From assembly GCA_017516865.1 (NCBI GenBank), contig JAFXAU010000025.1, positions 57,971-121,970 on the forward strand: a stretch of DNA of 64,000 nucleotides, read 5' to 3'. Made by a program: the position numbers and the translations under genes. This document shows, piece by piece, positions 3,707 through 19,156 of this stretch. Each line of letters opens with the position of its first letter. The first letter of the stretch is position 1. Source of the DNA: Bacteroidales bacterium. Its GTDB lineage: Bacteria; Bacteroidota; Bacteroidia; Bacteroidales; UBA1715. Below the pieces are notes generated by a model that had not been told where the DNA came from, made no database searches, and saw nothing but the letters and a program-made list of their open reading frames with translations.

Positions 3707-4727
3707 TGACTACACGTTCTAATTCATCATAGGTTATTTTTTCGACAGAGCAAGCTCCAATGCCTGTCAGATATACAAAGTGTACGCCGTTGCCTTCGCG
3801 TTTTTTGTCGCTTTTCATAAGTTTGAGCAATTCAGAGCCATCGACGTTGCATGAAATTGGCATACCTAAATTTGAAAGCAAGGTTATCAATCTTGCACAG
3901 TCTGATTCTTTCATTTTCCCTTTCAAGACAGACAATTTTGCCGCGTAGACCATTCCTACGGAAACTGCACAGCCATGGGGCAGATGTGTAATCTTTTCTA
4001 TGGCGTGGCCGAATGTGTGACCGAAATTGAAAATTCTTCGTAATCCCGATTCCCGTGCATCTTGACTTACAATCTTAGCTTTAATCACAACCGACTCGTA
4101 CACAAGATTTTCAAGTACATCGAGCGAGAAATTTTTTATTTCCTGGATATGCGATTCAATATAAGAAAACAGCGATTCGCTATAAATTGCCCCGTATTTC
4201 ACGACCTCTCCCATTCCACTCAGCAATTCCTCTTGTGGCAGCGATTTTAGAATTTCTAATTCGCAAATCACAAATTTTGGAAGATTGAATGTGCCGATGA
4301 TGTTTTTGATGCCTCGGAAGTTCACGCCATTTTTGCCTCCCACACTTGCATCAACTTGACCAAGCAATGTTGTTGAAACAAATCCGAATTGCACACCGCG
4401 CATGAAAATTGTGGCGATAAAACCGCTCATGTCGCAAACAATTCCGCCGCCTATGCCTAAAATGAACGATGAACGGTCGAATTCCGCCTCTATCAATTGT
4501 TCAAAAATCACGTCAAGCGACTGAAGACATTTGTTTGATTCTCCTTGTGGAATTTCAAGAACAATATCGGCTTGCGGAAATTTGTCGCCGTACAATTTGT
4601 GAATGACAGGATCGGTTATGATGGCAATCTTTCCTGTTTTAGGTAGGTACTTGGAAACATTTGTAAGCGTTTCGCCTACAAATATTTCCGATTTCCCTAT
4701 GGAACTTTGTATTTCGAGTCTCTTCAT
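3693..4727 (-). CDS. aroB: 3-dehydroquinate synthase
   Basis: GGGIVCDMSGF, TTLLGQVDASVGGKNGVN, NFGHTFGHAIE, HGCAV and DKK motifs. Confidence 0.97.
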   Translation of the reverse strand: MKRLEIQSSIGKSEIFVGETLTNVSKYLPKTGKIAIITDPVIHKLYGDKFPQADIVLEIPQGESNKCLQSLDVIFEQLIEAEFDRSSFILGIGGGIVCDMSGFIATIFMRGVQFGFVSTTLLGQVDASVGGKNGVNFRGIKNIIGTFNLPKFVICELEILKSLPQEELLSGMGEVVKYGAIYSESLFSYIESHIQEIKNFSLDVLENLVYESVVIKAKIVSQDARESGLRRIFNFGHTFGHAIEKITHLPHGCAVSVGMVYAAKLSVLKGKMKESDCARLITLLSNLGMPISCNVDGSELLKLMKSDKKREGNGVHFVYLTGIGACSVEKITYDELERVVNDLR

Positions 4728-4743
4728 TTTTGCCTAATTTCGG

Positions 4744-5817
4744 CTACGAATTTACAATTTCCGTTTGAATATTGATTGATTCTTGGTGAATTGCTTTAAA
4801 AGTTTTTTCAATCAACTCGTTGCTCAAGCCTTTTTCAGCACCACGAGCAAGTTTGTCGGTCAAGATTTGGTCCCAACGATGTGACTGGAACACTTGCACA
4901 TTGTTTTCCTTTTTCGTCTTACCCATTTCGCGGCACACGTCCATACGTTTCGAAAGTGTGTCGAGCAACATTTCGTCAAGCACGTCGATTTTTGCACGGA
5001 GTTCGCTCATAACTTCCTTGTAATCAGCGTTATTCGTTCCACGTTCACGAACAACCAAACTGTTGAGGATTTCGCCTAAATCTTTCGGTGTGAATTGTTG
5101 TTTCGAGTCGCTCAACGCCACATCAGGATTGCAGTGCGATTCAATAATCAAACCATTTGCACCCAAATCCAACGATTTTTGAGCCAATTCCTGGACATAT
5201 TCGCGTTTTCCTGCCATGTGGCTTGGGTCGCAGATAATTGGCAATTCAGGGATTCGGCGATGTAATTCAATCGCCATCTGCCATTGCGGAGCGTTGCGGT
5301 ATTTTATTTTTTCGAACGATGAAAAACCACGGTGAATGGCACCGAGTTTCGTGATTCCAGCACCGGCAATTCGCTCGAAAGCACCAATCCACAATTCCAA
5401 GTCGGGATTGATAGGATTCTTGATAAGCACAGGAATGTCAACGCCCTTCAGCTCATTGGCAATTTCTTGCACGGCAAACGGATTCACCGTCGTACGGGCG
5501 CCAATCCAAAGAATGTCAACACCCATTTTCAATGCCTCGTTCACGTGTTTCTGGCACGCAACTTCGGTTGCCGTAAGCATTCCGTATTCTTTTTTAACAC
5601 GTTTCAACCACGCCAATCCTTCAAATCCTACGCCTTCGAATGAATTTGGACGAGTGCGAGGTTTCCAAATACCTGCACGGAAAATTTGCACACCAAGTTC
5701 TTTCAATCCTTTGGCAGTTTCCATTACCTGCTCTTCTGATTCTGCACTACATGGGCCTGCTATGATTACAGGACGCTTTGCGTTAATACCCCATGTTTCT
5801 ATACTATCTACTTTCAT
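4744..5817 (-). CDS. Bifunctional DAHP synthase (I-beta) / chorismate mutase (AroQ)
   Basis: IAGPCSAES, KPRT, WIGART, DPSH; C-terminal LRAKIDVLDE...KRM chorismate mutase helix. Confidence 0.93.
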   Translation of the reverse strand: MKVDSIETWGINAKRPVIIAGPCSAESEEQVMETAKGLKELGVQIFRAGIWKPRTRPNSFEGVGFEGLAWLKRVKKEYGMLTATEVACQKHVNEALKMGVDILWIGARTTVNPFAVQEIANELKGVDIPVLIKNPINPDLELWIGAFERIAGAGITKLGAIHRGFSSFEKIKYRNAPQWQMAIELHRRIPELPIICDPSHMAGKREYVQELAQKSLDLGANGLIIESHCNPDVALSDSKQQFTPKDLGEILNSLVVRERGTNNADYKEVMSELRAKIDVLDEMLLDTLSKRMDVCREMGKTKKENNVQVFQSHRWDQILTDKLARGAEKGLSNELIEKTFKAIHQESINIQTEIVNS

Positions 5818-5841
5818 ATAATTAAATATTTATTTTTTGTT

Positions 5842-5869
5842 GAAGAGACGCGATTAATCGCGTCTCTTC
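5842..5869. repeat. 28-bp perfect palindrome, REP-like family (GAAGAGACGCGATTAATCGCGTCTCTTC)
   Basis: Perfect palindrome between tyrA and the DAHP/CM gene; matches the copy at 32484-32511 except one terminal base pair. Confidence 0.85.
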
Positions 5870-5878
5870 GATTATACA

Positions 5879-6721
5879 TTATCCTTTTAATACGTCTTTA
5901 ATTCTATTTGCTTCTTTTATTTCGTCGTACAATTCTTTTGTCTTGTCTTCGGCAATCAATTGTTTGAAATGATTCAGCACGTCAATGTATTTGTCGATTG
6001 AATCCGTCAGGAAGCGGGCGTTTTGGCGGAAAATCGGCGTCCACATTGCTGACGAACTTTTTGCGATTCGCACGGTTGATGCGAAACCACTGCCAGCCAT
6101 TTCGAAGATTTTCTTTTCCTCGTTTTTCTCAATTTCCTGAACCGTCAAACTCAATGCGTAGGCAATCACGTGCGTAAGGTGCGACACATAGGCAATGTGT
6201 TTGTCGTGGTCTTCGGCCGACATATATAATACGCTCATTCCTAACAATTTGTATAGCATTAAGGCACGTTTCAAGGCAAAATCGCTGCTCAATTCCTTTT
6301 CGCAAATAATTGCTTTTTTGTCTTTGAACAAACCGACCAAAGCCGCTGTAGGTCCCGAAAATTCCGTTCCCGCCATAGGGTGCGAAGCCACGAAATTTCC
6401 TCGGCGAGGGTGATTGCGTACTTTGCCACAAATGCCTGCTTTTGTCGAACCAGTGTCGATTACGACAGCGTCGTCGCGGATGTTGTCGAGAATTGACGGA
6501 AGCATTTCACGAGCAGCGTCGACAGGTATTGAGATTATGATTAAATCGGCAATCTGAACGGCCTGTTCCAATGGCATTGCCATATCGATAATGCCAAGCT
6601 CCATTGCTTTTTTCAGGTTTTCCTCGCTGGCATCAACGCCAATGATTTTGGTCTCGAAGCCACGGGCGGAAAGCGCCATAGAGCCGCCAATCAAACCTGT
6701 TCCTATAACTACAATATTCAT
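5879..6721 (-). CDS. tyrA: Prephenate dehydrogenase
   Basis: VIGTGLIGGS NAD-binding motif, DTGSTK, HPMAGTE, HDKHIAYVSHL. Confidence 0.95.
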   Translation of the reverse strand: MNIVVIGTGLIGGSMALSARGFETKIIGVDASEENLKKAMELGIIDMAMPLEQAVQIADLIIISIPVDAAREMLPSILDNIRDDAVVIDTGSTKAGICGKVRNHPRRGNFVASHPMAGTEFSGPTAALVGLFKDKKAIICEKELSSDFALKRALMLYKLLGMSVLYMSAEDHDKHIAYVSHLTHVIAYALSLTVQEIEKNEEKKIFEMAGSGFASTVRIAKSSSAMWTPIFRQNARFLTDSIDKYIDVLNHFKQLIAEDKTKELYDEIKEANRIKDVLKG

Positions 6722-6722
6722 A

Positions 6723-7559
6723 TTAGTTCAAAATTTCGTAATTGAATTTTTCATCACGTTTATATTCTCCCAAGACCGAAAGATTCGAAACCACCTTGAG
6801 CACTGCGGCCAATGCGGCGTCGAACTTGTTTTTGTCCTTCCATTCCAAATCTACGTAGAACGTGTATTGGTAAGGACTTCCCAAAATAGGAAGTGATTGG
6901 ATTTTGGTAAGATTTATTTCGTGTTGCTTGAATGCCGCCAACACATCGACCAACGAGCCCGGCTGATGCGACAATTCAAAACAAATCGATGCCTTGTTGT
7001 TTTCCTCGCTATCGACGGGAATGCGGCTCAGGGCAAGAAAACGCGTGTAGTTTTTCTTATGCGTCTGAATGTTTCTTGCCAAAATCTCAAGACCGTATAA
7101 ATCGGCAGCATATTCACTTGCGATTGCTGCTGCATTGGTAAGTTTCTCTTCCTTGATTTTCTGTGCGCTCGAAGCCGTGTCGGACCAGTTGATGATTTTC
7201 ATATCAGGATAGTTGTCGAGAAAATCCTTGCTTTGCTGGATTGCGATGGGATGAGAATACACCTCGTGAATGTCCTCGATTTTCGTGCCCGGCAATACCA
7301 TAAGATTTTGTGTGATGTGCAGTGAAATCTCACCGATGATTTTCAGCTTTGAACGTTTGAGCAACAAATAATTTTCGAGAATGCTGCCCGCTATTGTATT
7401 TTCTATGGCACAAATGCCGTAATCGGCAGTGCCGTGCTCCACAGCCGAAAACAAATCCTTGAACTGGTTGCAGTTGAGCGTTGTAATGTCGTCGCCGAAA
7501 TATTCTTTGGCGGCTATTTCGTGGAATGCTCCGTTCACACCTTGAATTGCAATTTTCAT
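6723..7559 (-). CDS. pheA: Prephenate dehydratase with C-terminal ACT domain
   Basis: IAIQGVNGAFHE, IENTIAGS, SHPIA, NYTRF, NLTKIQSLP; ATG 7559 preferred because the track's TTG 7574 lies in the attenuator U-tract. Confidence 0.95.
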   Translation of the reverse strand: MKIAIQGVNGAFHEIAAKEYFGDDITTLNCNQFKDLFSAVEHGTADYGICAIENTIAGSILENYLLLKRSKLKIIGEISLHITQNLMVLPGTKIEDIHEVYSHPIAIQQSKDFLDNYPDMKIINWSDTASSAQKIKEEKLTNAAAIASEYAADLYGLEILARNIQTHKKNYTRFLALSRIPVDSEENNKASICFELSHQPGSLVDVLAAFKQHEINLTKIQSLPILGSPYQYTFYVDLEWKDKNKFDAALAAVLKVVSNLSVLGEYKRDEKFNYEILN

Positions 7560-7572
7560 ATTTCTATTATTC

Positions 7573-7605
7573 AAAAAAAAAAGCCCCGATTTTCATCGAG
7601 GCTTT
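7573..7605 (-). terminator. Attenuator terminator hairpin upstream of pheA
   Basis: Minus strand AAAGCCTCGAT-GAAA-ATCGGGGCTTT followed by a long T run. Confidence 0.9.
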
Positions 7606-7629
7606 GTTTATACAATCGTATTTATTCAA

Positions 7630-7707
7630 TTACATACACACAGCCTCGCTTTTACTGCTAAAGTAAAAGTAAAAGTAGAAGAAGTATGCGTATGCACTGT
7701 TAATCAT
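7630..7707 (-). CDS. Phe/Tyr-rich attenuator leader peptide MINSAYAYFFYFYFYFSSKSEAVCM (25 aa)
   Basis: Translated by hand; 5 Tyr and 5 Phe codons within residues 6-16; lies directly upstream of the terminator and pheA; contains CGAGGCT complementary to the terminator 5' arm. Confidence 0.9.
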   Translation of the reverse strand: MINSAYAYFFYFYFYFSSKSEAVCM

Positions 7708-7715
7708 TGGAATTC

Positions 7716-8417
7716 TTATTTATTAGTGAATTTAATTGCTGCATAAGCTACGAAACGTTCAGTAGCAGGGTTCAATGTCACACCACCTTTGATTGGAAGA
7801 GAGAAGTTGTCGTTGATTTTGATAGCAGTTTCTTTTTCCAAACCGATGTTACAGATTGCGAAGTCGCCACCGTTACCCCATACTGGGCTTGTAGTGTAAA
7901 TACCTTCGCCGGCACCAAGAGTTACTTTGAAAATATCGAAGTCGTATGCAAGGTGACCGTAGAAGTCAACTTTCTTATCTTCCATGAAGTTCAATGCAAC
8001 GAAGAATTGCAATTTACCATAATCGTAACGGATAGCTGGTTCAATTGTGTGAGTTTTTGCGATGTTGTCGAAGTTTACACCCAACCAGTTACCGCCCTTA
8101 TAGTAGTCAGTCAATTCAATTGACAAATCAAATGGGAAACGATATTTTGCATAGATATTGCTTTCGAAACCTAATTCTTCGCCTGTACACATTGTACCTT
8201 CTGCACCGATTGCGAATCCGCCAGCAGCTATTTCGAATGTAGGTTTGAATGCTGGTCCTGAACCAACTTGGATACCACGCCAAACTTCAGATGATTTAAT
8301 TTCTAATCCAACGTTGCATTTTGTATTGCAACTGCTTTTTGCTTCTTGTGCTGAAACGCTCATTGTACCGAATACAGCGGTAGCAATTAGAGCAAGGTTC
8401 AATAAAATTTTTCTCAT
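7716..8417 (-). CDS. Outer-membrane beta-barrel protein, TorF/Gcw-chp putative porin-like
   Basis: Signal peptide MRKILLNLALIATAVFGTMSVSA, SxxVWRG...GPAFKP start, ELTDYY, alternating aromatic strands, LNPATE..F near C-terminus; start ATG 8417. Confidence 0.6.
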   Translation of the reverse strand: MRKILLNLALIATAVFGTMSVSAQEAKSSCNTKCNVGLEIKSSEVWRGIQVGSGPAFKPTFEIAAGGFAIGAEGTMCTGEELGFESNIYAKYRFPFDLSIELTDYYKGGNWLGVNFDNIAKTHTIEPAIRYDYGKLQFFVALNFMEDKKVDFYGHLAYDFDIFKVTLGAGEGIYTTSPVWGNGGDFAICNIGLEKETAIKINDNFSLPIKGGVTLNPATERFVAYAAIKFTNK

Positions 8418-8512
8418 TGTCGTATAACCTTTAAAATTTTTTTGCAAATCTATAACTTTTACGAAAAAAAAAAGTATTTCCGTGAAAATTTTCGATAAAT
8501 TACTCATTTATT

Positions 8513-8520
8513 TATATTTG
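8513..8520 (+). promoter_or_regulatory. Bacteroidota -7 box TATATTTG; a divergent TAGATTTG lies on the minus strand near 8445-8452
   Basis: Matches TAnnTTTG upstream of each divergent gene. Confidence 0.6.
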
Positions 8521-8544
8521 CTCAAATTTTAACCTTTTTTGATT

Positions 8545-9369
8545 ATGAAAAAAATAGTACTTCTTTTGATTGGTTTAAGTGTTTCGGTTTTTGCCGCAAA
8601 TGCTCAAGGAAAATTATTGAACAAAGCTCTCAACGCTGCTGGGCAAGGCGTTACGAATGCCATTACGAAAAAAGTGGAATCGGTGGCCGAAAAACAAATG
8701 GAAGTCTATTTGAATAAGAAGCTGAGTGCGTACGAACAACATCTTACCGAAGAAAACAAAAAATACCAGGCAGCGATGGGTGCTTGGCAAGATTCGCTCA
8801 TAGCAATGACATCGGTGCCGTTCGAAGACGAATATGTGTTCAACACGTTGGTGAATAGCGAGGTTGTAATGGTTAACGAGCAGGGCGAGAAAGAAACGCT
8901 TGCTTGCACATATTATATGAATAAAGATGCCGAATATTTTGGTTACGGTGTTGAAAACATGATAACCGTGATGGACTACAAAAACAACGTGATGGTTTGT
9001 TTTTCGTCTGACGAAAAGGGCAAAGTTTATTTTGCGTACAAGAATGCCGCTACGCAAACTGTCGTTGCCGACGATGCTGTAGAAAAACTTTCGGGAAGCA
9101 AAACAATTTGTGGATATAGCTGTTCGGGCTACAAAACAATAAACCCAATGTACAATGGAACATGCTGGGCTTCGACAAGCGACGATTTTGCCATGAATTA
9201 CACAAATCTGTATCTGCCAAAAACGAGCTATGGCTTTCCGCTCTATATGGAAGGAACCGTTTATGGCGACAATGGCCAGAAGTTAGATTACACGGCCGAA
9301 GCCAAAAGCGTTAAAAAGAACGAGAAATTCACTATTCGCAAAGCAGATTACAAGAATATGTTCGAGTAG
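8545..9369 (+). CDS. Secreted protein, DUF4412-like
   Basis: Signal peptide MKKIVLLLIGLSVSVFAANA; GSKTICGYSCSGY motif resembles DUF4412/GLPGLI-type domains. Confidence 0.55.
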   Translation: MKKIVLLLIGLSVSVFAANAQGKLLNKALNAAGQGVTNAITKKVESVAEKQMEVYLNKKLSAYEQHLTEENKKYQAAMGAWQDSLIAMTSVPFEDEYVFNTLVNSEVVMVNEQGEKETLACTYYMNKDAEYFGYGVENMITVMDYKNNVMVCFSSDEKGKVYFAYKNAATQTVVADDAVEKLSGSKTICGYSCSGYKTINPMYNGTCWASTSDDFAMNYTNLYLPKTSYGFPLYMEGTVYGDNGQKLDYTAEAKSVKKNEKFTIRKADYKNMFE

Positions 9370-9501
9370 TAAATTCAACAACAAGTCATAAGAATCGAAA
9401 AATATACAGTAGTATTTATTATATGTTTATTGAATAATTTTATGAAATAGAAAACAAAGTAGAAATTAACCATAGTATTTGAGCTTTGTGCTCTTATTCT
9501 C

Positions 9502-9637
9502 TCTGCTGAAAACTGGACACTTTCAAACTGGATGAGGGTAGAACATGAAAGTTCACGTCAAGCGTGGACATTGTCATATCTATCCAGTTGGTAGTCCAGA
9601 ATCCACAGCAGAAGGTATAACAACGTGTTCCACGCTT
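9502..9637 (+). ncRNA. Candidate structured cis element / ncRNA with two interlocking helices
   Basis: TCTGCTG/CAGCAGA, CTGGAC/GTCCAG and AACTGGAT/ATCCAGTT nested; AAGCGTGGA(9560-9568)/TCCACGCTT(9629-9637) crosses them. Confidence 0.55.
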
Positions 9638-9684
9638 TTAGTTTACCGAGGGATGAGACCGAAGCCTTAAAAGTGCCGAAGTCA

Positions 9685-9903
9685 ATGAAACCGACGGAAT
9701 CTATAAATATTGGCAAAATTATATGCAATGAATTGAAAAATCAAGGTCGTACCGTCACTTGGTTTGCAAAGACATTGGGCATAAACCGAATACAATGTTA
9801 TCGAATTTTTAAATCCTACAGCATTGACACCATTACATTGTTAAAGATTTCGGCAGTGCTTAAAGTTGACTTCTTTAAATTGTATTCTAATCTTTTAAAA
9901 TAG
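9685..9903 (+). CDS. Small XRE/Cro-like HTH transcriptional regulator (72 aa)
   Basis: IGKIICNELKNQGRTVTWFAKTLGINRIQCYRIF...SIDT..LLKIS..LKVDFF, typical of small Bacteroidales HTH proteins; ATG 9685. Confidence 0.85.
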   Translation: MKPTESINIGKIICNELKNQGRTVTWFAKTLGINRIQCYRIFKSYSIDTITLLKISAVLKVDFFKLYSNLLK

Positions 9904-9913
9904 CAGACATTGT

Positions 9914-9953
9914 TGTATCAATATTGTTACATAGCTGTATCAATAATGGAACA
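9914..9953. promoter_or_regulatory. Tandem 18-bp imperfect palindromic operator-like boxes
   Basis: TGTATCAATATTGTTACA (9914-9931) and TGTATCAATAATGGAACA (9936-9953), 22-bp period. Confidence 0.65.
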
Positions 9954-10024
9954 CGCCGATATATTTAAATTAAAAGTAATATCCGTTCTTTGTAAAAAAT
10001 TTTTAATTTTAATTTATAAAAACT

Positions 10025-10699
10025 ATGAGTTGCTTAGAATTATTTTTTAAGAACAATCTTCCTGACGATTTTGATGTCGCAAGAAGTCCCGAACAAATCG
10101 AAATCATTAAATATTTCCATCCAGCAGGCGGTTGCATTGGAAAATTGTTCAAAACCATGTCAGATACTGTGTATAGACAAAAGGTTGCAGAAGCTGTTGC
10201 TAAAATTACCAAAGAAAAAGCATTGGAAAAAATTGGTCTGGACGAAAGTCAGGTTAGCGAAATTGAACCAGTTCATTTTGAGAACTTCTATTGGGATGAG
10301 AAAAGTGGTAGAAACTATTCAAAATGGATTAAAAAAGACCATGAATTTGTTAGTTCGGCATATCAAGTTACTTGGATATTCTTTGGCGATACACAAATGT
10401 ATGTTTATCAATATCTGTTAAATATGGACAGAAACGAGAAGAAAGAATCAACAGAAGAATATTTCTATAAAGATGTCACAAACTTCTCGACATCGTCAGA
10501 TACGGTAGAACAAGATACTTTGTACGAAGAAGGCGGATGCTTGAGCGGAGACACTTACAAACGTCAGAATGTAAATATGGACCGTTTCCAAATCAGTGCA
10601 ATGGGAGATAAATTCTGGTGCTCAATGAGGCAAAATGAATACTCGGAAAGAGCAATTCAAGGTATGAAGGCGAAACTTCGTGAAAAGAAAAACCAGTAA
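10025..10699 (+). CDS. Hypothetical soluble protein (possible PH-like C-terminal domain; two GGC motifs)
   Basis: 224-aa ORF, first gene of a tightly packed operon; no family recognised with confidence. Confidence 0.7.
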   Translation: MSCLELFFKNNLPDDFDVARSPEQIEIIKYFHPAGGCIGKLFKTMSDTVYRQKVAEAVAKITKEKALEKIGLDESQVSEIEPVHFENFYWDEKSGRNYSKWIKKDHEFVSSAYQVTWIFFGDTQMYVYQYLLNMDRNEKKESTEEYFYKDVTNFSTSSDTVEQDTLYEEGGCLSGDTYKRQNVNMDRFQISAMGDKFWCSMRQNEYSERAIQGMKAKLREKKNQ

Positions 10700-11108
10700 T
10701 ACTGACCTAAGGGCTATCAGCAAAGACGAGCAAGAGATAGTTCGGGGCTACGTTCTCTTTCGTCCTTTGTATAGACCTAATATTACTATAGCAAAAACAA
10801 TTCCTTTTATTGGAGCATATTTGTGCATCGTAGGAGGAATTGTTTTTTGGAAAGGATGGATGATTGGAATCATTGGTGGTTTAATTATCCTACTCGTTTT
10901 AGCACGGGTTATTTTAATAAAACTTATTGAACTATATCAACATTATGCCCCAGAAAATGTCAGAAGGAATTGCTTATTAAAGCCGACATGTTCGGAATAT
11001 GCAATATTGGCAATTAAACAATATGGAGCATTAATCGGCATGATAAAAACTATTCATAGATTGTTCCACACATGCCGAGGATATACGTATCATATTGACG
11101 AACCTTAA
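10680..11108 (+). CDS. YidD/haemolytic-domain protein with N-terminal TM helices
   Basis: LIELYQ...CLLKPTCSEYAILAIKQYG...RL..C....DEP YidD signature preceded by two hydrophobic helices. Confidence 0.8.
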   Translation: MKRKTSNTDLRAISKDEQEIVRGYVLFRPLYRPNITIAKTIPFIGAYLCIVGGIVFWKGWMIGIIGGLIILLVLARVILIKLIELYQHYAPENVRRNCLLKPTCSEYAILAIKQYGALIGMIKTIHRLFHTCRGYTYHIDEP

Positions 11109-11119
11109 TTTTTATAAAT

Positions 11120-12214
11120 ATGGGACTGTTTAATAATCGGAATGAAAATGAGTCGGCATTCATCGGTGGTGAAAAACATTGGAGTGACGTCATAAAAAAC
11201 TCTGGACCAGGAGAATTACTTATTTGGCGTCAACCTGAAGAAGACTTCAACACAAACTCAACTGTGATTGTAATGCCAGGCGAGCAAGCAATATTCATAA
11301 ACAAGGGAAATATTGAACAAGTTTTCTCAAGTGGCACATATAAACTTGATACTCAGAATTATCCGTTTATTAGTAGACTTCGAAATGCCTTTACGGGAGG
11401 GATAAGCACATTCAATTGCGTGGTATATTTTGTTCGCGAAGCTGACAGCCAGGAAATTGAATGGGGAACACGGCAACCAATCAGATACGGAGATCCTATG
11501 CTTGGACCTGTAAATATAAAAGCTGGTGGAGCATATAAAATAGCAATCTCGAATCCACAAAAATTTCTTACAAAATTATTGGGAAACAATGTGGACTTTG
11601 AAACACAAGATGGTTTGAATGCATATTTTGGGAATGAGTTTTCCATGCATATCGCAACATCTATAAATCAAACTTTACAACGCTTACAATCGGAGCAATA
11701 TAAAGAAATATATCACTATGTAGGTGATTTACTTTCATTTGCTAATCAAGTGAAGCCATCTTTACAAGAGATTCTTGACGATTATGGTATAAAACTTAAA
11801 ACATTCTCTATTTCAAGATGTAAAGACGAATACGATGATCCGGAAATTCAGAAGATGATTACGGACAAAAAACGTATGCAATATTTGGGTTCAAATTGGG
11901 GTGCGCAACAACAAGTTGACATTTTGAAAAATATTTCTACGAATCCAGGTTCAGGAGGAATAGCGGGAGCAGGAGCAGGATTAGGCATGGGGATGGCAAT
12001 GGGAGGAATGTTCGGAGGTATGGCACAACAACAATTCAATCAAAACCCTTTCCAACAACAGCAGATGCAGCAACAATCACCTCAGCAAACGCCACAACAA
12101 ACAGGAAATCCTGTTATGGAAAAGTTGAAACAATTGAAGGAATTGGCAGATATGAATCTTATTACTGCCGAGGAATTTGAAAATAAAAAGAAAGAACTTT
12201 TAAGTCAACTATAA
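11120..12214 (+). CDS. SPFH/band-7 (YdjI-like) protein with glycine-rich segment, Q-rich linker and C-terminal SHOCT domain
   Basis: STVIVMPGEQAIF..G..EQVF..GTYKL.TQNYPF, VYFV, WGT..PI; GAGAGLGMGMAMGG; EKLKQLKELADMNLITAEEFENKKKELLSQL. Confidence 0.85.
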   Translation: MGLFNNRNENESAFIGGEKHWSDVIKNSGPGELLIWRQPEEDFNTNSTVIVMPGEQAIFINKGNIEQVFSSGTYKLDTQNYPFISRLRNAFTGGISTFNCVVYFVREADSQEIEWGTRQPIRYGDPMLGPVNIKAGGAYKIAISNPQKFLTKLLGNNVDFETQDGLNAYFGNEFSMHIATSINQTLQRLQSEQYKEIYHYVGDLLSFANQVKPSLQEILDDYGIKLKTFSISRCKDEYDDPEIQKMITDKKRMQYLGSNWGAQQQVDILKNISTNPGSGGIAGAGAGLGMGMAMGGMFGGMAQQQFNQNPFQQQQMQQQSPQQTPQQTGNPVMEKLKQLKELADMNLITAEEFENKKKELLSQL

Positions 12215-12216
12215 TT

Positions 12217-13014
12217 ATGAAAAGACTAATTTCAAATACGTGGAGCATTGTCGCCGTTATATTGATACTCCTATTTAATGTGTGCTTTTTCCTCTTGACA
12301 ACAGATGATGTTGACATGGGACGAAGCATAACGACATGGGTTAGCTACGGTTTTATCCATGTTGCTTTCTTATTCTTATTGTTGGCTCCTGCTTTTGTGA
12401 CAAAAGGTGCGTCAACTCGCGATACGGCACCGTCTGTTTTTTATGTATGTATTACCTATTGGTGGATTGAACTGATAGTTGGTGTTTTTTTCATTCTTAT
12501 GACTTCTCCGGCAGTAATACGAACTGTTATAAATCCGTTAATCGATATTTTGTCGGGGAATGTCATTATTGAATTTTTTGCAAATTGGATTTTCGATGTT
12601 TTACATTCCGACCCGAACAAATTTGGAATTATTAGTCAAACAATTATTTTCGGATTGTTTATAGTAGTTTTAGTTATAGTCAGAGCTGTAGATAAAGATA
12701 CCGAAGAGCAAGAATTACGTCGCGAGCATGAATTACAATATGTTAAGACAGCCGAAGCCCAATTAAAGTTTAAACTTGCTGAAATAACTGAAAAAAACAC
12801 TGCTCGGAAAGTTGAACAATTGTATGACTATATTCGAACAAGTCCATTAAAATCTCATAATAGTGTGAGAGATATAGAAAATACAATCCTAAATAAGGTA
12901 TTTTCCATAGTATCGGAAAACGATAATGAAACAATTTTTACCCAAGCAGAAGAAACTCTTCGCTTGGCTGAACAACGAAATAAAATATTACTAATAAACA
13001 ACAATAAACTATGA
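12217..13014 (+). CDS. Hypothetical membrane protein (about 4 TM helices plus cytoplasmic helical domain)
   Basis: Hydrophobic N-terminal half; C-terminal LYDYIRTSP..S...IE...RN helical region. Confidence 0.7.
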   Translation: MKRLISNTWSIVAVILILLFNVCFFLLTTDDVDMGRSITTWVSYGFIHVAFLFLLLAPAFVTKGASTRDTAPSVFYVCITYWWIELIVGVFFILMTSPAVIRTVINPLIDILSGNVIIEFFANWIFDVLHSDPNKFGIISQTIIFGLFIVVLVIVRAVDKDTEEQELRREHELQYVKTAEAQLKFKLAEITEKNTARKVEQLYDYIRTSPLKSHNSVRDIENTILNKVFSIVSENDNETIFTQAEETLRLAEQRNKILLINNNKL

Positions 13015-13595
13015 TGCAAGCACAAATAGTAGAATGTCCAAGTTGTGGACGCAGTTTGTCGCCCGAGATGAAGAATTGTCCTGCTTGTGGCAATGCAATT
13101 ATTATTTCTTCTTTTACAAGTGTCGCTTCAATGCCATTGCCTACAATAAATAAATATGCAAATGCGTATCGAAACGCATTACAAAATAATCCTGACGACA
13201 AGACTCTTAATAACGCTGTAGGTATGTGTTATCTCAAATTGAAATTGTATGACAAGGCAATTCCTGCTTTTGAGAAAGCAATCGAAGATAATTTTGACAA
13301 CGCGGAGACTTTTTTCTATGCCGCAGTTTGTCTGTTAAAAGGAAAGAAGGCGTTTTTGGCACAACGTCCAGAAATCAATAAAATCGAAAATTATCTTAAT
13401 GCGGCTTGCATGATAGAACCGAAAGGAGTTTATTATTTATTCTGGGCATATATTAAGAAAGATTATTATGAACGGAAATTCCTGAATTCATCTCCCAAAT
13501 CTAGTGAACTTTTGCAACAGGCTATAGATTGTGGTTGCTCCAACTTCGACAAGGAACAACTTTTTTCACTATTGACGGTTGAAAGTCCGTTTTGA
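13011..13595 (+). CDS. Zinc-ribbon plus TPR protein
   Basis: CPSCG..CPACG N-terminus; TPR-like NAVGMCYLKLKLYDKAIPAFEKAIE..FDNAETFFYAA. Confidence 0.85.
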   Translation: MMQAQIVECPSCGRSLSPEMKNCPACGNAIIISSFTSVASMPLPTINKYANAYRNALQNNPDDKTLNNAVGMCYLKLKLYDKAIPAFEKAIEDNFDNAETFFYAAVCLLKGKKAFLAQRPEINKIENYLNAACMIEPKGVYYLFWAYIKKDYYERKFLNSSPKSSELLQQAIDCGCSNFDKEQLFSLLTVESPF

Positions 13596-13597
13596 AT

Positions 13598-16087
13598 TTA
13601 TTCTTCAAACTCTTCCCAGTAAATGGTATTGTCCCATTCGGCTTTTACACTTACCGAAGTTTTGAAGAAATAGATTTTTTCCGGCTGGCGTTTAATCTCT
13701 ATGCAGCCTGTATCCCATTTATTGTTGTTGTTTTCGTCAACATAGCAGCGAAGGGAGTATGAACCCATGGGAATATTGTCGAAACGATAGCCGTTGTCGG
13801 TTTTTGAGGCATAAAATGTTTCTGGTTCTTTGGCCTCGCTTTCTACGTAGAATACAAGATTTTGCGACGGAAGTCCTTTCGTGTTTTTAATGATGAGGTT
13901 TCCTACGTTGTCCATTTTCGGACATTGGAATGAAAACGACAACGAATCGTTTGCGTCTCCGAACACGTCGTGGAATGTGCTGTCGGGAATGACGAGGTAA
14001 TACGACGTGTTTCCCTCCCATTCCGCCGTGAGGGCATATTTTCTACCGTTTTTGTCGGTCGGAGTTAATGAGAAGTTTTTCTTTTGAACAAACTGTACGT
14101 CCGAAGGCTCTGTCTGCAATTCTGCGACAAAATCTTTCGAAGCAGATTTGAATGTATCGACAAGAGCACCTTTTTTGAGTTCTAATGAATATGTCTCGCC
14201 CGCTTTAGCAGTGTGATTTATCACAATAATTCTCGATGATTTTGGCGATATTGTTACGCTTGTTATGATTGATGTTTCGGTGGAATCATTTGTATTGACA
14301 AGCGAAAACAGACTGTCTGTCAACGATGCAATTGGATTGTTGCAAATGATTTCGAGAGGCTCGTAGGCTTTGAACTTGTCTTTTTGTTGATTGCGTAATT
14401 GTACAAGAAGTCGCTTGTTCGAACTTGGTTTCTTATACATTTTCTGCACAGGAACGTCTTTCTTATCGTTGAAATTCAGTTTTTGCACCGTTCCATTTTC
14501 ATCAGTAAATTCTACCGTTATGGCCTGATTTTTCAGTTTGAGCGCGTCAGATTCTGGTTTTATCCAAAACAACAGTGCGTTCGATTTTTCATCGCGTTCG
14601 CAATAGTACCAATCGGTAAGATTGGGAAGACCGTCAAGAGTGACTTTTACATCTTGAGGAATTGTCGGTTTACTAAAAAACAATGCAAAACGGTCGTTGG
14701 TTTCTTTATGCCGCAGGATTTCTTGACGGGCATAGTGTTTTTTCGGGCGGAATTTGGCATCGGAGAACGAGAAGAGTTCCTCGCATGTTGTTTTTGACGT
14801 ATCGCAGGATTGGTAGAGAGCAATTTTGTCTAACAATGATTTGTCGACTGGACGTGAGAGTGTCAGAAAAACCGTGTCTTTGGGGAAAATCTTTGGATTT
14901 TTTGTAAGATTCGAAGTTATGTCAACTCTGTCGGGCAAATCTTTCAGAGCCTCAATCTTGAGTGTGTCACTCTGCATTTTCTGCGAATTTTTATTTTCCT
15001 GATACGTAACAATCGCCACGAGTGAATCGCAATTTTGTAAGGTTGTGTCTGTCAGCCAAATAATAAGACTATCGGGAGTGGTAAGCTCCTGCACAAATTC
15101 TTTTTCGGGAATCAATTTCACCGTAATTTCGCCTTGAACGTCGGTGGCGAACTTACAGCCATACGCATATTTGGAGATGCGTTTCCCCGATAGGACGCTT
15201 TGTTTCCATACTTCGTTTTCAAAGATGCTGAGTTTTATGTCTCGAGGCGCCCAACGTGTTTTTTCCACTAATTTGAAGGAATCTTTTACTTGTGTAATGA
15301 GAATGCTGTCTTCGAATTCTTCGAAACGAGTGGTGTCGTTGTGCGAATACCAAACGGTGTCTATATATCGTTCGGCGGTAGGTGTGAACACGCTGTCGAG
15401 AAAACCAATGCTTTCCGAAGGTTGATTGAAAGTAAAATCTTTGTCGGAATCAACGAGAGCATAGATTCTGTATGGTTTTGCCTCGATGTTCGAAAACGAG
15501 AAATCTCCCCGTTTCGAAGCCTGGGTAATGTAGCGTGGTTTCTGCGTTTGAAAAGCGGAATCGCTCAAATCGTCATACAGTAGCACGTATGTTTTTTCAG
15601 GAATTTTTTTGCTTCGAGCCGATGTAATGGTTCCCGATACTTTCATGCTGTCAATTCCCGCACCGGTCGAAAAGGCGTAAAGATATTGTTCCGTAACATT
15701 GTCTTCAGTCAAATCTTTAATTGCGTTGTTAAAGTTGAAACTGTAGGTTGTTCCCGATTGCAACTTTTGTTTCGATAAGTCTATGGTAAGTTTTTTCTTT
15801 TTCACCGTGATTGACGGCGTTTCTTCCATTACTGGCGAAATCATGCAATTATCTTCAATGTTTTCGAGAGCGATAAATTCATTGAATTTGACAACAATTT
15901 TCTTTGGATTGATGTTCTGCGAATTGTTCATTGGTTTTTCGAGAACGGCATAAGGTTCTATGGTATCGACGGGACCGCCTAACGGAGCCGATTCCCGAGC
16001 GCAGTTCATAAGAGTGAACGGAAACGGGAGAGCCAACAACAGCGGGAAAAGAAGTCGAATGAATATTGTATTTCGTTGTTTGTCCAT
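13598..16087 (-). CDS. Ig-like (Big_5) domain lipoprotein conserved in Bacteroidota
   Basis: Lipobox LMNC followed by A..AP.GGP.D; FNEFI, TTYSFNF.NAIKD, FSTG..IDS; C-terminal DENNNNKWDTG...QPE. Confidence 0.8.
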   Translation of the reverse strand: MDKQRNTIFIRLLFPLLLALPFPFTLMNCARESAPLGGPVDTIEPYAVLEKPMNNSQNINPKKIVVKFNEFIALENIEDNCMISPVMEETPSITVKKKKLTIDLSKQKLQSGTTYSFNFNNAIKDLTEDNVTEQYLYAFSTGAGIDSMKVSGTITSARSKKIPEKTYVLLYDDLSDSAFQTQKPRYITQASKRGDFSFSNIEAKPYRIYALVDSDKDFTFNQPSESIGFLDSVFTPTAERYIDTVWYSHNDTTRFEEFEDSILITQVKDSFKLVEKTRWAPRDIKLSIFENEVWKQSVLSGKRISKYAYGCKFATDVQGEITVKLIPEKEFVQELTTPDSLIIWLTDTTLQNCDSLVAIVTYQENKNSQKMQSDTLKIEALKDLPDRVDITSNLTKNPKIFPKDTVFLTLSRPVDKSLLDKIALYQSCDTSKTTCEELFSFSDAKFRPKKHYARQEILRHKETNDRFALFFSKPTIPQDVKVTLDGLPNLTDWYYCERDEKSNALLFWIKPESDALKLKNQAITVEFTDENGTVQKLNFNDKKDVPVQKMYKKPSSNKRLLVQLRNQQKDKFKAYEPLEIICNNPIASLTDSLFSLVNTNDSTETSIITSVTISPKSSRIIVINHTAKAGETYSLELKKGALVDTFKSASKDFVAELQTEPSDVQFVQKKNFSLTPTDKNGRKYALTAEWEGNTSYYLVIPDSTFHDVFGDANDSLSFSFQCPKMDNVGNLIIKNTKGLPSQNLVFYVESEAKEPETFYASKTDNGYRFDNIPMGSYSLRCYVDENNNNKWDTGCIEIKRQPEKIYFFKTSVSVKAEWDNTIYWEEFEE

Positions 16088-16156
16088 AGAATCTAAATTC
16101 AGCCAAAAGTACTAAAATTTGTCGTATTTATCTATCTTTGTCAATAAATTAGGAAT

Positions 16157-16492
16157 ATGGCAGATAATAAATACAAATTACAAGTGTCGGATATCCGCGA
16201 TTTGGTCAAACCGATGGGATATTGCATTGCGTCGGACAGAATTACTGTCGATGGCGCAAAGGTAGGTTTTATGTACCGCGAGGAACGCGAAGACGAAGAC
16301 GACAGCGGCTGGCGTTTTCTTGCTGGCGACGAAACCGACGAATATCTTGACGACCAGCAACATTTTATGATGTTCGATGTGAATTATATTGCCAATTTAG
16401 ACGAAGCAATCATCCCGTATTTGAAGTACAGAAAAGGCTCGGAATTGGAACGGGTAGAAGGTTCCGATAAATTCACAAGATATTGTGAATGA
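16157..16492 (+). CDS. DUF2185 / Imm33-like protein
   Basis: CIASDRITVDG.KVGFMYRE...DSGWRFLAGDE.DEY...N.IAN.D.AIIPYL; -7 box TATCTTTG at 16133-16140. Confidence 0.85.
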   Translation: MADNKYKLQVSDIRDLVKPMGYCIASDRITVDGAKVGFMYREEREDEDDSGWRFLAGDETDEYLDDQQHFMMFDVNYIANLDEAIIPYLKYRKGSELERVEGSDKFTRYCE

Positions 16493-16530
16493 AAGTGTTG
16501 GCTGAATTTGTAGAAATAAGGGGTAAATAA

Positions 16531-17115
16531 CTATTTTGTTTCCCGCCATTCAAATGAGCTAATCATCTCAATAATGTCTTCGCGGACAAAATCAATCACA
16601 GGAGCCAAAGAATCTTTATTCGGCGGGACATTGAAGTACAATGCTCCTCTCACAAAGTTTTTGGTGCTGTCGGTTACGCAAAATTGCATTGACGATGCCG
16701 CGTCGCCTTTTATGTCGAACAGCAGACCGTGCACGTGTTTGTCGTCGTAGTGGAATTCTTTCATGTTGATTGCATCGGCACGGACTTCGTGTTTGAAAGC
16801 AAGCTGGTGGGCGTCTTCCACAATCTCGTCTAAATTGTTTTTGAGAGGGTGGTAGCTTACGTGAATTGTTGCCCTCATCGAAGGAAACTGAACATTAACC
16901 CAATACGGCTCTGCCCCTGCGTCGGTATCTTGTTCAACTGTTGCATATTTCGGCACCACGAAAGAGTAGGGGAATCCTGTTTTTTCAAATTGTGTGTACT
17001 CACGTTCAGGGAAGTCAATACGAAAATATCCCCGTTGTTTCGGCACACGTATGTCGCGTTCCTGACAGCCTAACAAGGAACAGACAACAAGTATGGGAAA
17101 AATGATTCGTTTCAT
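16531..17115 (-). CDS. gldD: Gliding motility lipoprotein GldD
   Basis: Lipobox LLGC, PK.RGYFRIDFP, KH..RADAI, GDAAS..QF..TDS.KNF.RGALYF..PN.DSLAP; ATG 17115. Confidence 0.9.
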   Translation of the reverse strand: MKRIIFPILVVCSLLGCQERDIRVPKQRGYFRIDFPEREYTQFEKTGFPYSFVVPKYATVEQDTDAGAEPYWVNVQFPSMRATIHVSYHPLKNNLDEIVEDAHQLAFKHEVRADAINMKEFHYDDKHVHGLLFDIKGDAASSMQFCVTDSTKNFVRGALYFNVPPNKDSLAPVIDFVREDIIEMISSFEWRETK

Positions 17116-17131
17116 GGTGTAAAAGTAAAAA

Positions 17132-17165
17132 AATAATCGCATACCACGAACGATATGCGATTATT
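17132..17165 (-). terminator. Intrinsic terminator after ssb
   Basis: AATAATCGCATA / TATGCGATTATT 12-bp stem, T run downstream on the minus strand. Confidence 0.7.
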
Positions 17166-17174
17166 GATTCTCAA

Positions 17175-17639
17175 TTAGAACGGAAGTTCTTCTTCGGGAG
17201 CGTCCTGCGAAGGATATTCCGCTTGAACTTCGGCAACAATTTGTGCCGCCGTCGGTTGAGGTTGGGCTGCTTGTTGGTTGTTCTCAAGCAAACTGCCCGA
17301 ATCGCTTTTTCTGCCTAATTTGCGAAGTTCGTCTACAACAATTTCCGTGCTGTAGCGTGTTTCGTTCGTGTTTTTGTCCTGATACTGAGAATAATGTATA
17401 CGACCTTCGACGTACACTTGATCTCCTTTTCTGACAAAATTTTCGCAGAATTTGGCCGTTCTGCCCCATACTGTAAGACGATGCCAGTCGGTACGTTCGG
17501 GAACTTCCGTTCCGTTTTGCCGAGTGAAGCCGCCTTCTGATGTGGCAACTCTAAGATGAGCAACTGGTTGGTCTTCCTTGATGTACTGTACATCAGGGTC
17601 GGCACCAACATTTCCGATTAAGATTACTTTGTTAATCAT
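17175..17639 (-). CDS. ssb: Single-stranded DNA-binding protein
   Basis: INKVILIGNVGADP, TDWHR, KGDQVYVEGRI, acidic tail ELPF. Confidence 0.97.
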   Translation of the reverse strand: MINKVILIGNVGADPDVQYIKEDQPVAHLRVATSEGGFTRQNGTEVPERTDWHRLTVWGRTAKFCENFVRKGDQVYVEGRIHYSQYQDKNTNETRYSTEIVVDELRKLGRKSDSGSLLENNQQAAQPQPTAAQIVAEVQAEYPSQDAPEEELPF

Positions 17640-17716
17640 GATGGAATAATATTAATTGGTTAGTAAATCAGGTCAAAAATACACATTTTTTAATTATGAC
17701 AAACACTTTTTCACAA

Positions 17717-19156
17717 TTACTGTATCAATTCTTCCCGATTTACGTCAAGTTTTAGGAAAATGAACAGCAACAGAGTAAATCCCCACAACGATGAACCGCC
17801 GTAGCTAAAGAACGGCAGCGGGATTCCAATGACAGGCATGAGACCTATTGTCATTCCTATGTTTATCATAACGTGCATGAATAATATGCTTGCAACGCAG
17901 TACCCATAAATTCGGCTAAATCGGGTTCGCTGTCGTTCGGCGACTTTCATAATTCTGATTATCAAGTAGATGAACAGGCCCAAAATAACCACCGCTCCGG
18001 CAAATCCCCATTCTTCGCCGATTGTACAGAAAATGAAGTCGGTACTTTGTTCCGGCACGAAGTTGTTCTTTGTCTGTGTTCCATTAAGAAATCCCTTTCC
18101 CGTCAAATCGCCGGAGCCGATTGCAATTTTCGATTGAATTACGTTAAATTCACTACCGCGCGGATCCGATTTCAACCCGAAAAATACTTCAATACGTGTC
18201 CGTTGGTGTTCTTCCAAGATGTTGTAGAACACGTATTCCACCGATTCTGAGATGACAACGGTTGATAGACCGATTCCGAATAAAAGAATTATGAAAAAGT
18301 TTTTCTTTTTATATGAAAACCACAAGGTCGGAACTAACAATATTCCGAATCCTGCCAAAAAACAGAAGAATTCATTTATTTGTAAATCAAATATGTGGTA
18401 GATAAGTATAGGAGTCAGGAAAATGATTGGGACTGCAATTAGGACTATTGGCTGAAGTTTGTGATTTTTCTGTAGTCCGTATGCAACGAACGAGATAAGG
18501 CAGATGCAAATTGCGAACAACGAGATACTTGCCCCGCCCCAAATAATCGACAGTGAGAAGACCAATATAAAATAAATGCCGACAAGCAAAACACCCAGTG
18601 GCATTCCTTCACGGTAAAAAACTAAGAAAAATGCTGCAAAAACGAGTGCGGTACCTGCATCGCCTTGCCATACGATTAAAGCGGCAGGAATCAGTAAAAT
18701 GAAGCAAGCAACGAACAAATCTTTCCATTTTTTGCCCGAAATGTGAATCCCATAACTTCCGAGATATTTTGCCACAGTCAGACTTGTGGCTAATTTTGCA
18801 AACTCCGACGGCTGAATCCGCAAAGGCCCAATTTCAATCCACGAACGGCCGCCGTTTACTTCTACGCCGAGAAAATATACCACAATGAGCGAAAGTATGA
18901 TAAATCCGTAGAAGAAATATGCAAATGAGAAATACATTCGGCTGTCGATGATGAGCACCGTCACGGCGACCAAAAATGCTGCAATAATCCAAATCAACTG
19001 TTTTCCGTATTTTTGAGAGACATCGAAAATTGACGCTGCCGTTTCGTCGAACACGGCGGAATAAATGTTTACCCAACCGGCAAAAACCAGAAATATGTAG
19101 ATTATTACAATCTGCCAATCCAAATTTTTAACAATATTTCCTACCTGTCGTGCCAT
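17717..19156 (-). CDS. rodA: Rod shape-determining protein RodA
   Basis: IQPSEFAK, QSKIAIGSG, PEQSTDFIF..IGEEWG, GIPLPFFSYGGSS; follows mrdA. Confidence 0.96.
   Translation of the reverse strand: MARQVGNIVKNLDWQIVIIYIFLVFAGWVNIYSAVFDETAASIFDVSQKYGKQLIWIIAAFLVAVTVLIIDSRMYFSFAYFFYGFIILSLIVVYFLGVEVNGGRSWIEIGPLRIQPSEFAKLATSLTVAKYLGSYGIHISGKKWKDLFVACFILLIPAALIVWQGDAGTALVFAAFFLVFYREGMPLGVLLVGIYFILVFSLSIIWGGASISLFAICICLISFVAYGLQKNHKLQPIVLIAVPIIFLTPILIYHIFDLQINEFFCFLAGFGILLVPTLWFSYKKKNFFIILLFGIGLSTVVISESVEYVFYNILEEHQRTRIEVFFGLKSDPRGSEFNVIQSKIAIGSGDLTGKGFLNGTQTKNNFVPEQSTDFIFCTIGEEWGFAGAVVILGLFIYLIIRIMKVAERQRTRFSRIYGYCVASILFMHVMINIGMTIGLMPVIGIPLPFFSYGGSSLWGFTLLLFIFLKLDVNREELIQ

Follow-up and report, generated by a model that had tools for sequence, protein, structure and literature searches.

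A 64,000-nucleotide stretch of the genome of a Bacteroidales bacterium (contig JAFXAU010000025.1 of assembly GCA_017516865.1), which we call the window, carries at positions 10025 to 13595 a run of five genes that match no named system, and the question raised by this locus is what such a gene set does for its host. We denote the five genes A to E, this genome G000, and related loci and genomes by L and G numbers. An initial annotation of the window had described the run as an uncharacterised membrane module and had framed it by the Psp-type envelope-stress genes of Bacillus subtilis (pspA-ydjGHI). A survey of relatives established A-E as a real, conserved and unnamed operon and revealed recurring partners that the initial annotation could not see, namely a HerA/FtsK ATPase accompanied by cargo that resembles polymorphic toxins and, in two genomes, an EssC/WXG100 cluster. 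We propose that A-E may form a membrane scaffold for the export of polymorphic toxins, as part of a system not described before, and that this genome keeps the scaffold without the motor (the ATPase) or a neighbouring toxin gene, likely for membrane surveillance or defense, a proposal for which we regard the case as evenly balanced.

The five genes were followed in two sets of loci, one seeded with A (the best 80 of 155 confirmed A relatives in GTDB genomes) and the other with E (the best 80 of at least 326 confirmed E relatives in metagenomes), and gene presence was scored with profiles built in this analysis. Of the 80 A-seeded genome loci, 74 contained B, 74 contained C, 70 contained E and 62 contained D, and the set was complete in 52. 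The initial annotation had called for a gene-neighbourhood check, and co-occurrence proved to be wide: every one of the 55 loci whose flanks were long enough to judge carried E, with B in 52, C in 51, D in 46 and the complete set in 43. The commonest order, A-B-C-D-E, is that of the window (38 of 80 loci), and Clostridia usually have E-A-B-C-D. A was present in 66 of the 80 E-seeded metagenome loci, and all 14 misses have less than 2.7 kb of upstream DNA. Record titles of the carriers span Bacteroidota, Bacillota and Spirochaetota, together with single acidobacterial and alphaproteobacterial metagenome-assembled genomes, and include the gut anaerobes Lachnospiraceae, Oscillospiraceae, Treponema and Bacteroidales. 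The operon is rare and patchy within these groups; A was found in 2 of 40 relatives and in 4 of 399 Clostridia, and 400 Bacteroidia yielded two distant E homologs and no close one.

The partner that carries our proposal is an ATPase of about 890 amino acids (aa) belonging to the HerA/FtsK group, which was present in 8 of the 80 genome loci and 33 of the 80 metagenome loci (41/160), nearly always after B and in a few loci after A. The ATPase has a mean column identity of 73%, intact Walker motifs and a DUF87 match above the cut-off. It passed no NCBIfam cut-off, the best match being the DNA translocase CedD at a score far below the cut-off; at least 1816 database relatives were found at E 1e-50, and the N-terminal region of about 390 residues had no match at all. 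Nine of the 41 ATPase loci end in or just past the ATPase. The other 32 continue beyond it, and in 31 of these an acidic protein is encoded immediately after the ATPase; in L104, C follows directly. The leader of this putative cargo, its first 60 residues, was measured in 24 proteins and in 23 of them has 23-52% D+E and no more than 8% K+R, one being masked by Ns.

The C-terminal tips of the cargo are variable, as the 24 tips fall into 11 clusters. Matches above the Pfam cut-off were obtained for TNT (L114), WHH/colicin DNase (L142, L196), papain Gln_amidase (L014, L125) and, in a further locus, ADP-ribosyltransferase (L196), and metallopeptidase and C39 matches were below it. Small open reading frames (ORFs) usually follow the tips, and in 17 tip/small-ORF pairs the seven small-ORF clusters match the tip clusters exactly. 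Extra cargo genes stand in tandem in L122, L142, L196 and L197. Motor-bearing relatives thus combine a shared acidic N-terminal region with variable toxin-domain tips, as in polymorphic toxin systems.

The same arrangement was seen when 401 genomes from a single Clostridia family were sampled independently; 13 of these had ATPase matches, and the surroundings were read for eight of them and for G440. All four close ATPases (>1600 bits), of which two are additional to the earlier loci and one repeats L005, lie in loci of the order E-A-B-ATPase-acidic cargo-C. Both ATPases of intermediate similarity have SPFH and zinc-ribbon genes before them and acidic cargo after them; the zinc-ribbon protein of these sister systems is TIR-bearing in G1221, and a D homolog is present in G1044. 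Genes for a WHH nuclease and a SUKH immunity protein lie downstream of one distant ATPase. Sister systems at L198:6131-13245 and L199:2542-10249 comprise SPFH, a zinc-ribbon protein (with TIR in L198), a diverged HerA ATPase and an acidic ORF; the cargo after the acidic ORF is either endonuclease NS_2 or metallopeptidase-like and is accompanied by a small ORF, and neither A nor B is present. A more distant HerA ATPase occurs in a run of the same order in two genomes (L201:6062-12936 and L202:1072-8145), beside a probable coiled-coil protein of about 580 aa, a small zinc-ribbon protein and proteins of about 155 and 525 aa.

The second partner was found in G452 and G453, where SPFH, FHA-FtsK (EssC-like), WXG100, DUF4176-type, PP2C, kinase, E, A and B genes form one same-strand run. 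Clusters of this kind, which resemble type VII secretion system (T7SS) loci, were recorded at L178:6753-14765 (with L024) and L179:6856-13482 (with L081), with the SPFH-zinc-ribbon gene first and PP2C-kinase-E-A-B last. No EsaA/EssB-like gene was seen by eye in the L178 and L179 clusters, for which no dedicated search was made.

The window carries the operon in its motor-less form, and this form is real. G000, which is 99.4% complete, yielded no ATPase homolog, no DUF87 and no WXG100 (PF06013), and the ATPase was also absent from all 14 other motor-less genomes, whose completeness is unstated; the positive control, G440, was detected. An FtsK ATPase of the EssC/YueA type was not found at window positions 4000-20000, and DUF87, the domain absent from G000, is one that the EssC-like proteins of relatives match, FtsK_SpoIIIE not having been searched genome-wide. 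No toxin gene with a variable tip and immunity gene is present at the window locus, where C comes directly after B; eight ORFs with acidic stretches lie elsewhere in this genome. A quick tree was made of 119 E proteins labelled as motor-bearing or motor-less; the label changes 15 times along it, at least five of these changes being forced by well-supported branches, and some clades of 20-22 loci are motor-less throughout. Cultured carriers of both forms exist: Ruminococcus albus AR67 has motor and cargo (L026), and Bacteroides finegoldii TSDC17.2 has neither. In a separate observation, the record NZ_OY725907.1 (L171), labelled 'plasmid 5' of B. finegoldii, carries the operon beside dinB as well as obgE, adk and hpt, and these last three genes indicate that it is probably a chromosome fragment.

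The individual proteins of the operon were characterized further. C scored 112.8 bits to Band_7_1 and 27.9 bits to SHOCT (cut-off 27), with a Gly/Gln-rich linker and no transmembrane (TM) segment, which on sequence evidence identifies it as a soluble SPFH protein of the YdjI/SamI type. It is a single-copy gene in this genome, and the tail of C among relatives is SHOCT, GYF_2 or zinc ribbons. Hydropathy predicted two TM segments in B, four in D and none in A, C or E. D matched no Pfam family; its model is all helical, with a predicted local distance difference test score (pLDDT) of 89.6, and shows a putative four-TM bundle continuing into a cytoplasmic helical bundle. The two sub-families of D are homologous (HHalign 95.5%, E 1.4e-8, 200 columns), and D lies immediately 3' of C except in one inverted locus; D is likely the membrane anchor of C. 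The best structural matches of D were assorted helical bundles (Rx-CC and designed proteins, best Z 10.6; MLKL 8.2), and no fold is claimed for it because the best Z is below the bar of about 13 for helical proteins. In Candidatus Symbiothrix (L043:4237-10549) the operon is split and partly inverted, and the N-terminal piece of D is duplicated.

B matched YidD PF01809 with 51.9 bits (cut-off 27) and TIGR00278 with 49.8 bits, above the cut-off, its two TM segments being followed by the YidD-like domain at the C-terminus. In an alignment of 72 sequences, C98 and C104 are invariant, C132 is nearly so, and a family-specific motif, YQHYAPE, is present. The genome also has a separate housekeeping YidD of 73 aa (109.9 bits, contig C8), and by its sequence B is a specialized membrane-anchored YidD paralog rather than the housekeeping YidD.

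E combines Zn_ribbon_3 (27.6 bits) with TPR_17 (26.5 bits, cut-off 24.4), and the mean column identity of 66 sequences across phyla is 53%. Its C-terminal helical surface is strongly conserved, with K113, F115, R119, D151, R155 and K156 invariant, and E is likely an adaptor. Distant E homologs have EAD11 in place of the zinc ribbon and still adjoin an A homolog. A lone pair of this kind, EAD11-TPR with a distant A, occurs in two Bacteroidia genomes (L086:7357-8874 and L087:7667-9166) with no SPFH, B or D gene nearby, tying the family to conflict systems with effector-associated domains. At L180:4817-11709, SPFH (652 aa) and a D homolog are followed by two tandem zinc ribbon-TPR proteins that have identical N-termini, the first with TIR; the E-A-B genes of that genome are at a separate locus, L012.

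A belongs to a large unnamed family to which Pfam assigns nothing (951 homologs; 1017 representatives at 50% identity). Its model (pLDDT 91.4) consists of N-terminal helices and a predicted PH-like domain, a beta-sandwich capped by a C-terminal helix that can be aligned to PH domains as expected of the superfamily. The best VIA-align match was 4tyz (Z 9.7, root-mean-square deviation (rmsd) 4.2, 108 residues aligned), followed by the PH-like domains of Lam6, Exo84 and bacterial 3hsa. The top eight rows, mostly named PH-like domains, range from Z 9.7 to 8.0 with rmsd 3.3-4.3, values modestly above the VIA-align background of 7-8. Foldseek gave weak PH matches alone (best E 0.028), a PDB sequence search with the A profile gave no match, and the ESM Atlas returned unnamed clusters alone. 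An N-terminal TM segment is predicted in 42 of 83 A homologs and in none of the other 41, with which the window copy agrees. A, like E, is likely an adaptor; a predicted complex of A and E scored 0.00 in both runs, which had no folded controls. Two Gly-Cys motifs lie in predicted loops of A (window positions 10130-10135 and 10535-10540), and C37 is invariant in 43 sequences and C172 nearly so; these motifs are possible membrane-contacting or modified sites. A distant PH-like A was also seen at L170:4780-8691, directly 5' of an SPFH, zinc-ribbon, TPM operon that resembles samI-samG-samH, with no pspA in the stretch. A had no match in 50,697 phage records, IMG/VR held no A or E relatives, and the sole PHROGs matches were to a short stretch at the C-terminus of C and to the zinc ribbon in E.

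The proposed mechanism is modeled on the B. subtilis SPFH operon, in which, as described in passages of PMC8581546, the soluble SPFH protein reaches the membrane only with the membrane proteins of the operon. By this analogy, D with its four TM segments and B with two and a YidD-like helix likely anchor C in the way that SamI is anchored by SamG and SamH. C would oligomerize into a cage that fences off a patch of membrane, and A (PH-like) and E (zinc ribbon-TPR) would dock clients on this cage. In motor-bearing relatives, the ATPase may grip the polyanionic leader of the cargo and drive the cargo out, and the small downstream gene would protect the producer; that the ATPase pulls on an acidic, DNA-like leader is inferred from its relatedness to DNA pumps and from the composition of the leader. 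Since cargo export is unlikely in this genome without a motor, our best guess for the window is a defensive or surveillance role, in which the scaffold would assemble alone and protect the inner membrane during conflict with neighbouring cells. Taken as a whole, a new toxin-export pathway, with an SPFH/YidD-like/4-TM/PH/zinc-ribbon-TPR chassis on which toxins are threaded by a HerA pump that pulls on a polyacidic leader mimicking DNA, with swappable motors (HerA or EssC) and with most carriers motor-less on the receiving or defensive side, is a possibility that we put forward tentatively. If true, it would add a trafficking route in gut anaerobes to the short list for polymorphic toxins, and would tie to toxin export the SPFH cages that have so far been linked to membrane stress and proteolysis. 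It also turns two matters into testable questions: whether proteins can be moved through a polyanionic leader by a nucleic-acid pump of the HerA type, and what role specialized YidD paralogs have.

Several observations weigh against toxin export as the purpose of the operon. The ATPase is missing from 72 of the 80 genome loci, the window's included, and the core may for that reason have a primary job unrelated to toxins. The E tree gives no direction of gain versus loss, its root resting on long branches. Eight tips have no Pfam match (L004, L005, L006, L115, L121, L138, L164 and L165), the tip/small-ORF pairs are not independent because several are near-identical copies, and the nine cognate small ORFs scanned contain no known immunity family, one of them matching DUF6985. 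The one named Bacteroidota ATPase locus of this kind, in Paludibacter (L040), encodes an acidic protein with no recognizable toxin tip, and two distant ATPase loci of the Clostridia sample (G835 and G1147) have none of A-E. No gene for an outer-membrane channel was noticed, which is a problem for export from a diderm cell.

These points leave room for a scaffold of the SamGHI type that serves envelope stress or membrane quality in general, and on whose promoter or scaffold the ATPase-toxin cassette would be a recurrent passenger. The motor-less form predominates and is intact, which agrees with such a scaffold, as do the YidD signature kept in B, the distant A homolog that directly precedes an SPFH, zinc-ribbon, TPM run in G851, and the succession of soluble SPFH protein and TM partner, which recalls SamI with SamG/SamH as described in parts of PMC8581546 and PMC13713150. 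Against it, the cassette sits after B or, in a few loci, after A almost every time and in more than one lineage, a second FtsK-type system (EssC) uses the same genes, the distribution is very patchy, PspA was not found in the genome and the operon proteins have no TPM match; on balance we find this explanation doubtful. The motor-less loci that nest among motor-bearing ones (for example L148/L150 with L135), and the long branches of some motor-less clades, could instead mean that the operon is a decaying or retained remnant which has lost motor and toxin and whose five genes do little. Against this, all five ORFs are intact with their invariant residues kept, entire clades are motor-less, and all five genes are covered by contigs from RNA libraries, so that we think a remnant very improbable.

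The ATPase could also act inside the cell, sensing phage infection and freeing an effector from its inhibitor in an abortive response, with the SPFH module as the membrane sensor, alone or with other effectors where the motor is absent. This would accommodate the weak resemblance that the ATPase bears to anti-phage HerA models (about 43 bits versus a cut-off of 800) and to solved HerA proteins, the EAD11 fused to distant E homologs, the TIR-bearing zinc-ribbon proteins beside related SPFH/D genes, and the NADase- and nuclease-type tips, which could act in cis. Yet the component hidden Markov models (HMMs) of PADLOC 2.0 (2023 library) gave no family for A-E at E 0.05, and the motor-bearing loci have tip-specific downstream ORFs and the tandem cargo mentioned above, with a SUKH gene in a distant relative; such features are typical of polymorphic toxins acting between cells. 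We consider the anti-phage explanation unlikely, and continue to prefer a toxin-export scaffold.

The layout of the operon in the window is given in the table. The five overlapping or abutting ORFs were found where the initial annotation had placed them, E ending 2 bp before a convergent Big_5 gene that ends at 13598; the Big_5 gene is common to all 13 congeners, and the gene after it varies among six congeners.

Features of the operon and its 5' neighbour in the window
Feature	Position	Strand	Description
HTH-like ORF	9625-9903	+	92 aa, start uncertain; HTH_3 18.6 bits, cut-off 23; possible local regulator, not a core part
Gene A	10025-10699	+	ORF, 224 aa
Gene B	10680-11108	+	ORF, 142 aa, GTG start, 20-nt overlap with A
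Gene C	11120-12214	+	ORF, 364 aa, 11-nt gap after B
Gene D	12217-13014	+	ORF, 265 aa, 2-nt gap after C
Gene E	13011-13595	+	ORF, 194 aa, 4-nt overlap with D

The AT-richness noticed earlier was borne out by measurement. The operon has a GC content of 0.360 versus a genome mean of 0.406, a value equally low in 39 of 730 equal-sized genome windows, and the third-position GC content (GC3) of A-E is 0.28-0.34 versus 0.41-0.53 in eight of nine neighbour genes, the ninth having 0.34. The operon looks horizontally acquired, in line with the origin first suggested for it. Only one of 13 congeners carries the operon, as detected by A, and there it lies at another locus with 45% identity versus 63-68% for the flanking core genes; a copy that is elsewhere and more diverged than the core genes fits separate acquisition. 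No empty insertion site was found, and no joint skipping the operon was present in four sequencing runs. The upstream intergenic region has no notable repeat elsewhere in the genome; within the window, a 37-nt intergenic stretch at 9489-9525 matches other contigs in two sequencing runs, with no second copy in the assembly. Homologs of the HTH-like (helix-turn-helix) ORF, which the initial annotation had not included, lie 5' of A in 12 of the 80 genome loci, including several Bacteroidales loci, and one also precedes the operon in B. finegoldii; its family has 12 matches across this genome. A scan for promoters and terminators was at chance level (22 sites versus 17.9 expected). Contigs from the RNA libraries of one gut study cover all five genes; those that cover A to C begin 18-27 nt 5' of A, the longest at 18 and 27 nt, and the contigs give a weak hint that the operon is expressed; it is only a hint because the contigs are unstranded and come from a single study.

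How A-E relates to known systems can now be stated. As in the initial annotation, no named system was recognized; apart from the PADLOC result, a full-text literature search, with supplements and most subscription papers outside its scope, found no description of the A-E set. Many neighbourhoods are listed in the supplements of PMC11237479, PMC7159879 and PMC3482391, and the set might be among them; PMC7159879 and PMC10936438, in the portions of each that bear on this, describe other systems. The pspA-samGHI (ydjGHI) operon, as portrayed in sections of PMC8581546, PMC13713150 and PMC11237479, shares with A-E an anchorless soluble SPFH protein with integral membrane partners, and zinc ribbons in the operon. 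It differs in that the partners here are PH-like, YidD-like, 4-TM and zinc-ribbon-TPR proteins, and relatives carry an ATPase and toxin-like cargo. PspA (PF04012), absent from the run according to the initial annotation, was not found anywhere in G000 (the same search was positive in 9 of 14 controls), and the TPM domain of SamH/YdjH had no match in A-E at E 0.05, the same library detecting TPM in L170. With neither PspA nor TPM, the operon is not a pspA-samGHI locus, and the frame first given to it shrinks to an analogy with the SPFH protein, for part of whose role in B. subtilis PspA is dispensable, as stated in a section of PMC13713150. B is above the cut-offs of the YidD insertion efficiency factor in both PF01809 and TIGR00278, but differs from it by two added TM segments, the YQHYAPE motif, a different operon and the presence of a separate genomic YidD. 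The ATPase of the relatives has the homologous P-loop domain of HerA pumps and HerA anti-phage systems (CedD and HerA_antiphage in NCBIfam), but it scores far below their cut-offs, its partners are membrane and scaffold proteins, and it is absent here.

A further parallel, in gene logic, is the T7SS/ESX, for whose toxin loci part of Zhang et al. 2012 (PMC3482391) names an FtsK/HerA motor and the PH-like EsaC. Both have an FtsK/HerA motor, a PH-like accessory (EsaC there, A here) and variable-tip toxins with small cognate genes, as far as that part of PMC3482391 describes them, and C, E, A and B are joined to EssC and WXG100 genes in two genomes. The systems differ in the usual motor, of about 890 aa with one HerA domain versus the three-domain EssC, and in the acidic low-complexity cargo leader that stands in place of WXG/LXG. 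This genome has neither WXG100 nor such an ATPase and, with no WXG100 or EssC at the locus, the operon is not itself a T7SS. By analogy, the motor-bearing loci appear to repeat the logic of T7SS toxin loci with other parts, and our preferred interpretation of A-E is as the core, minus its motor, of a polymorphic-toxin machine of a new kind.

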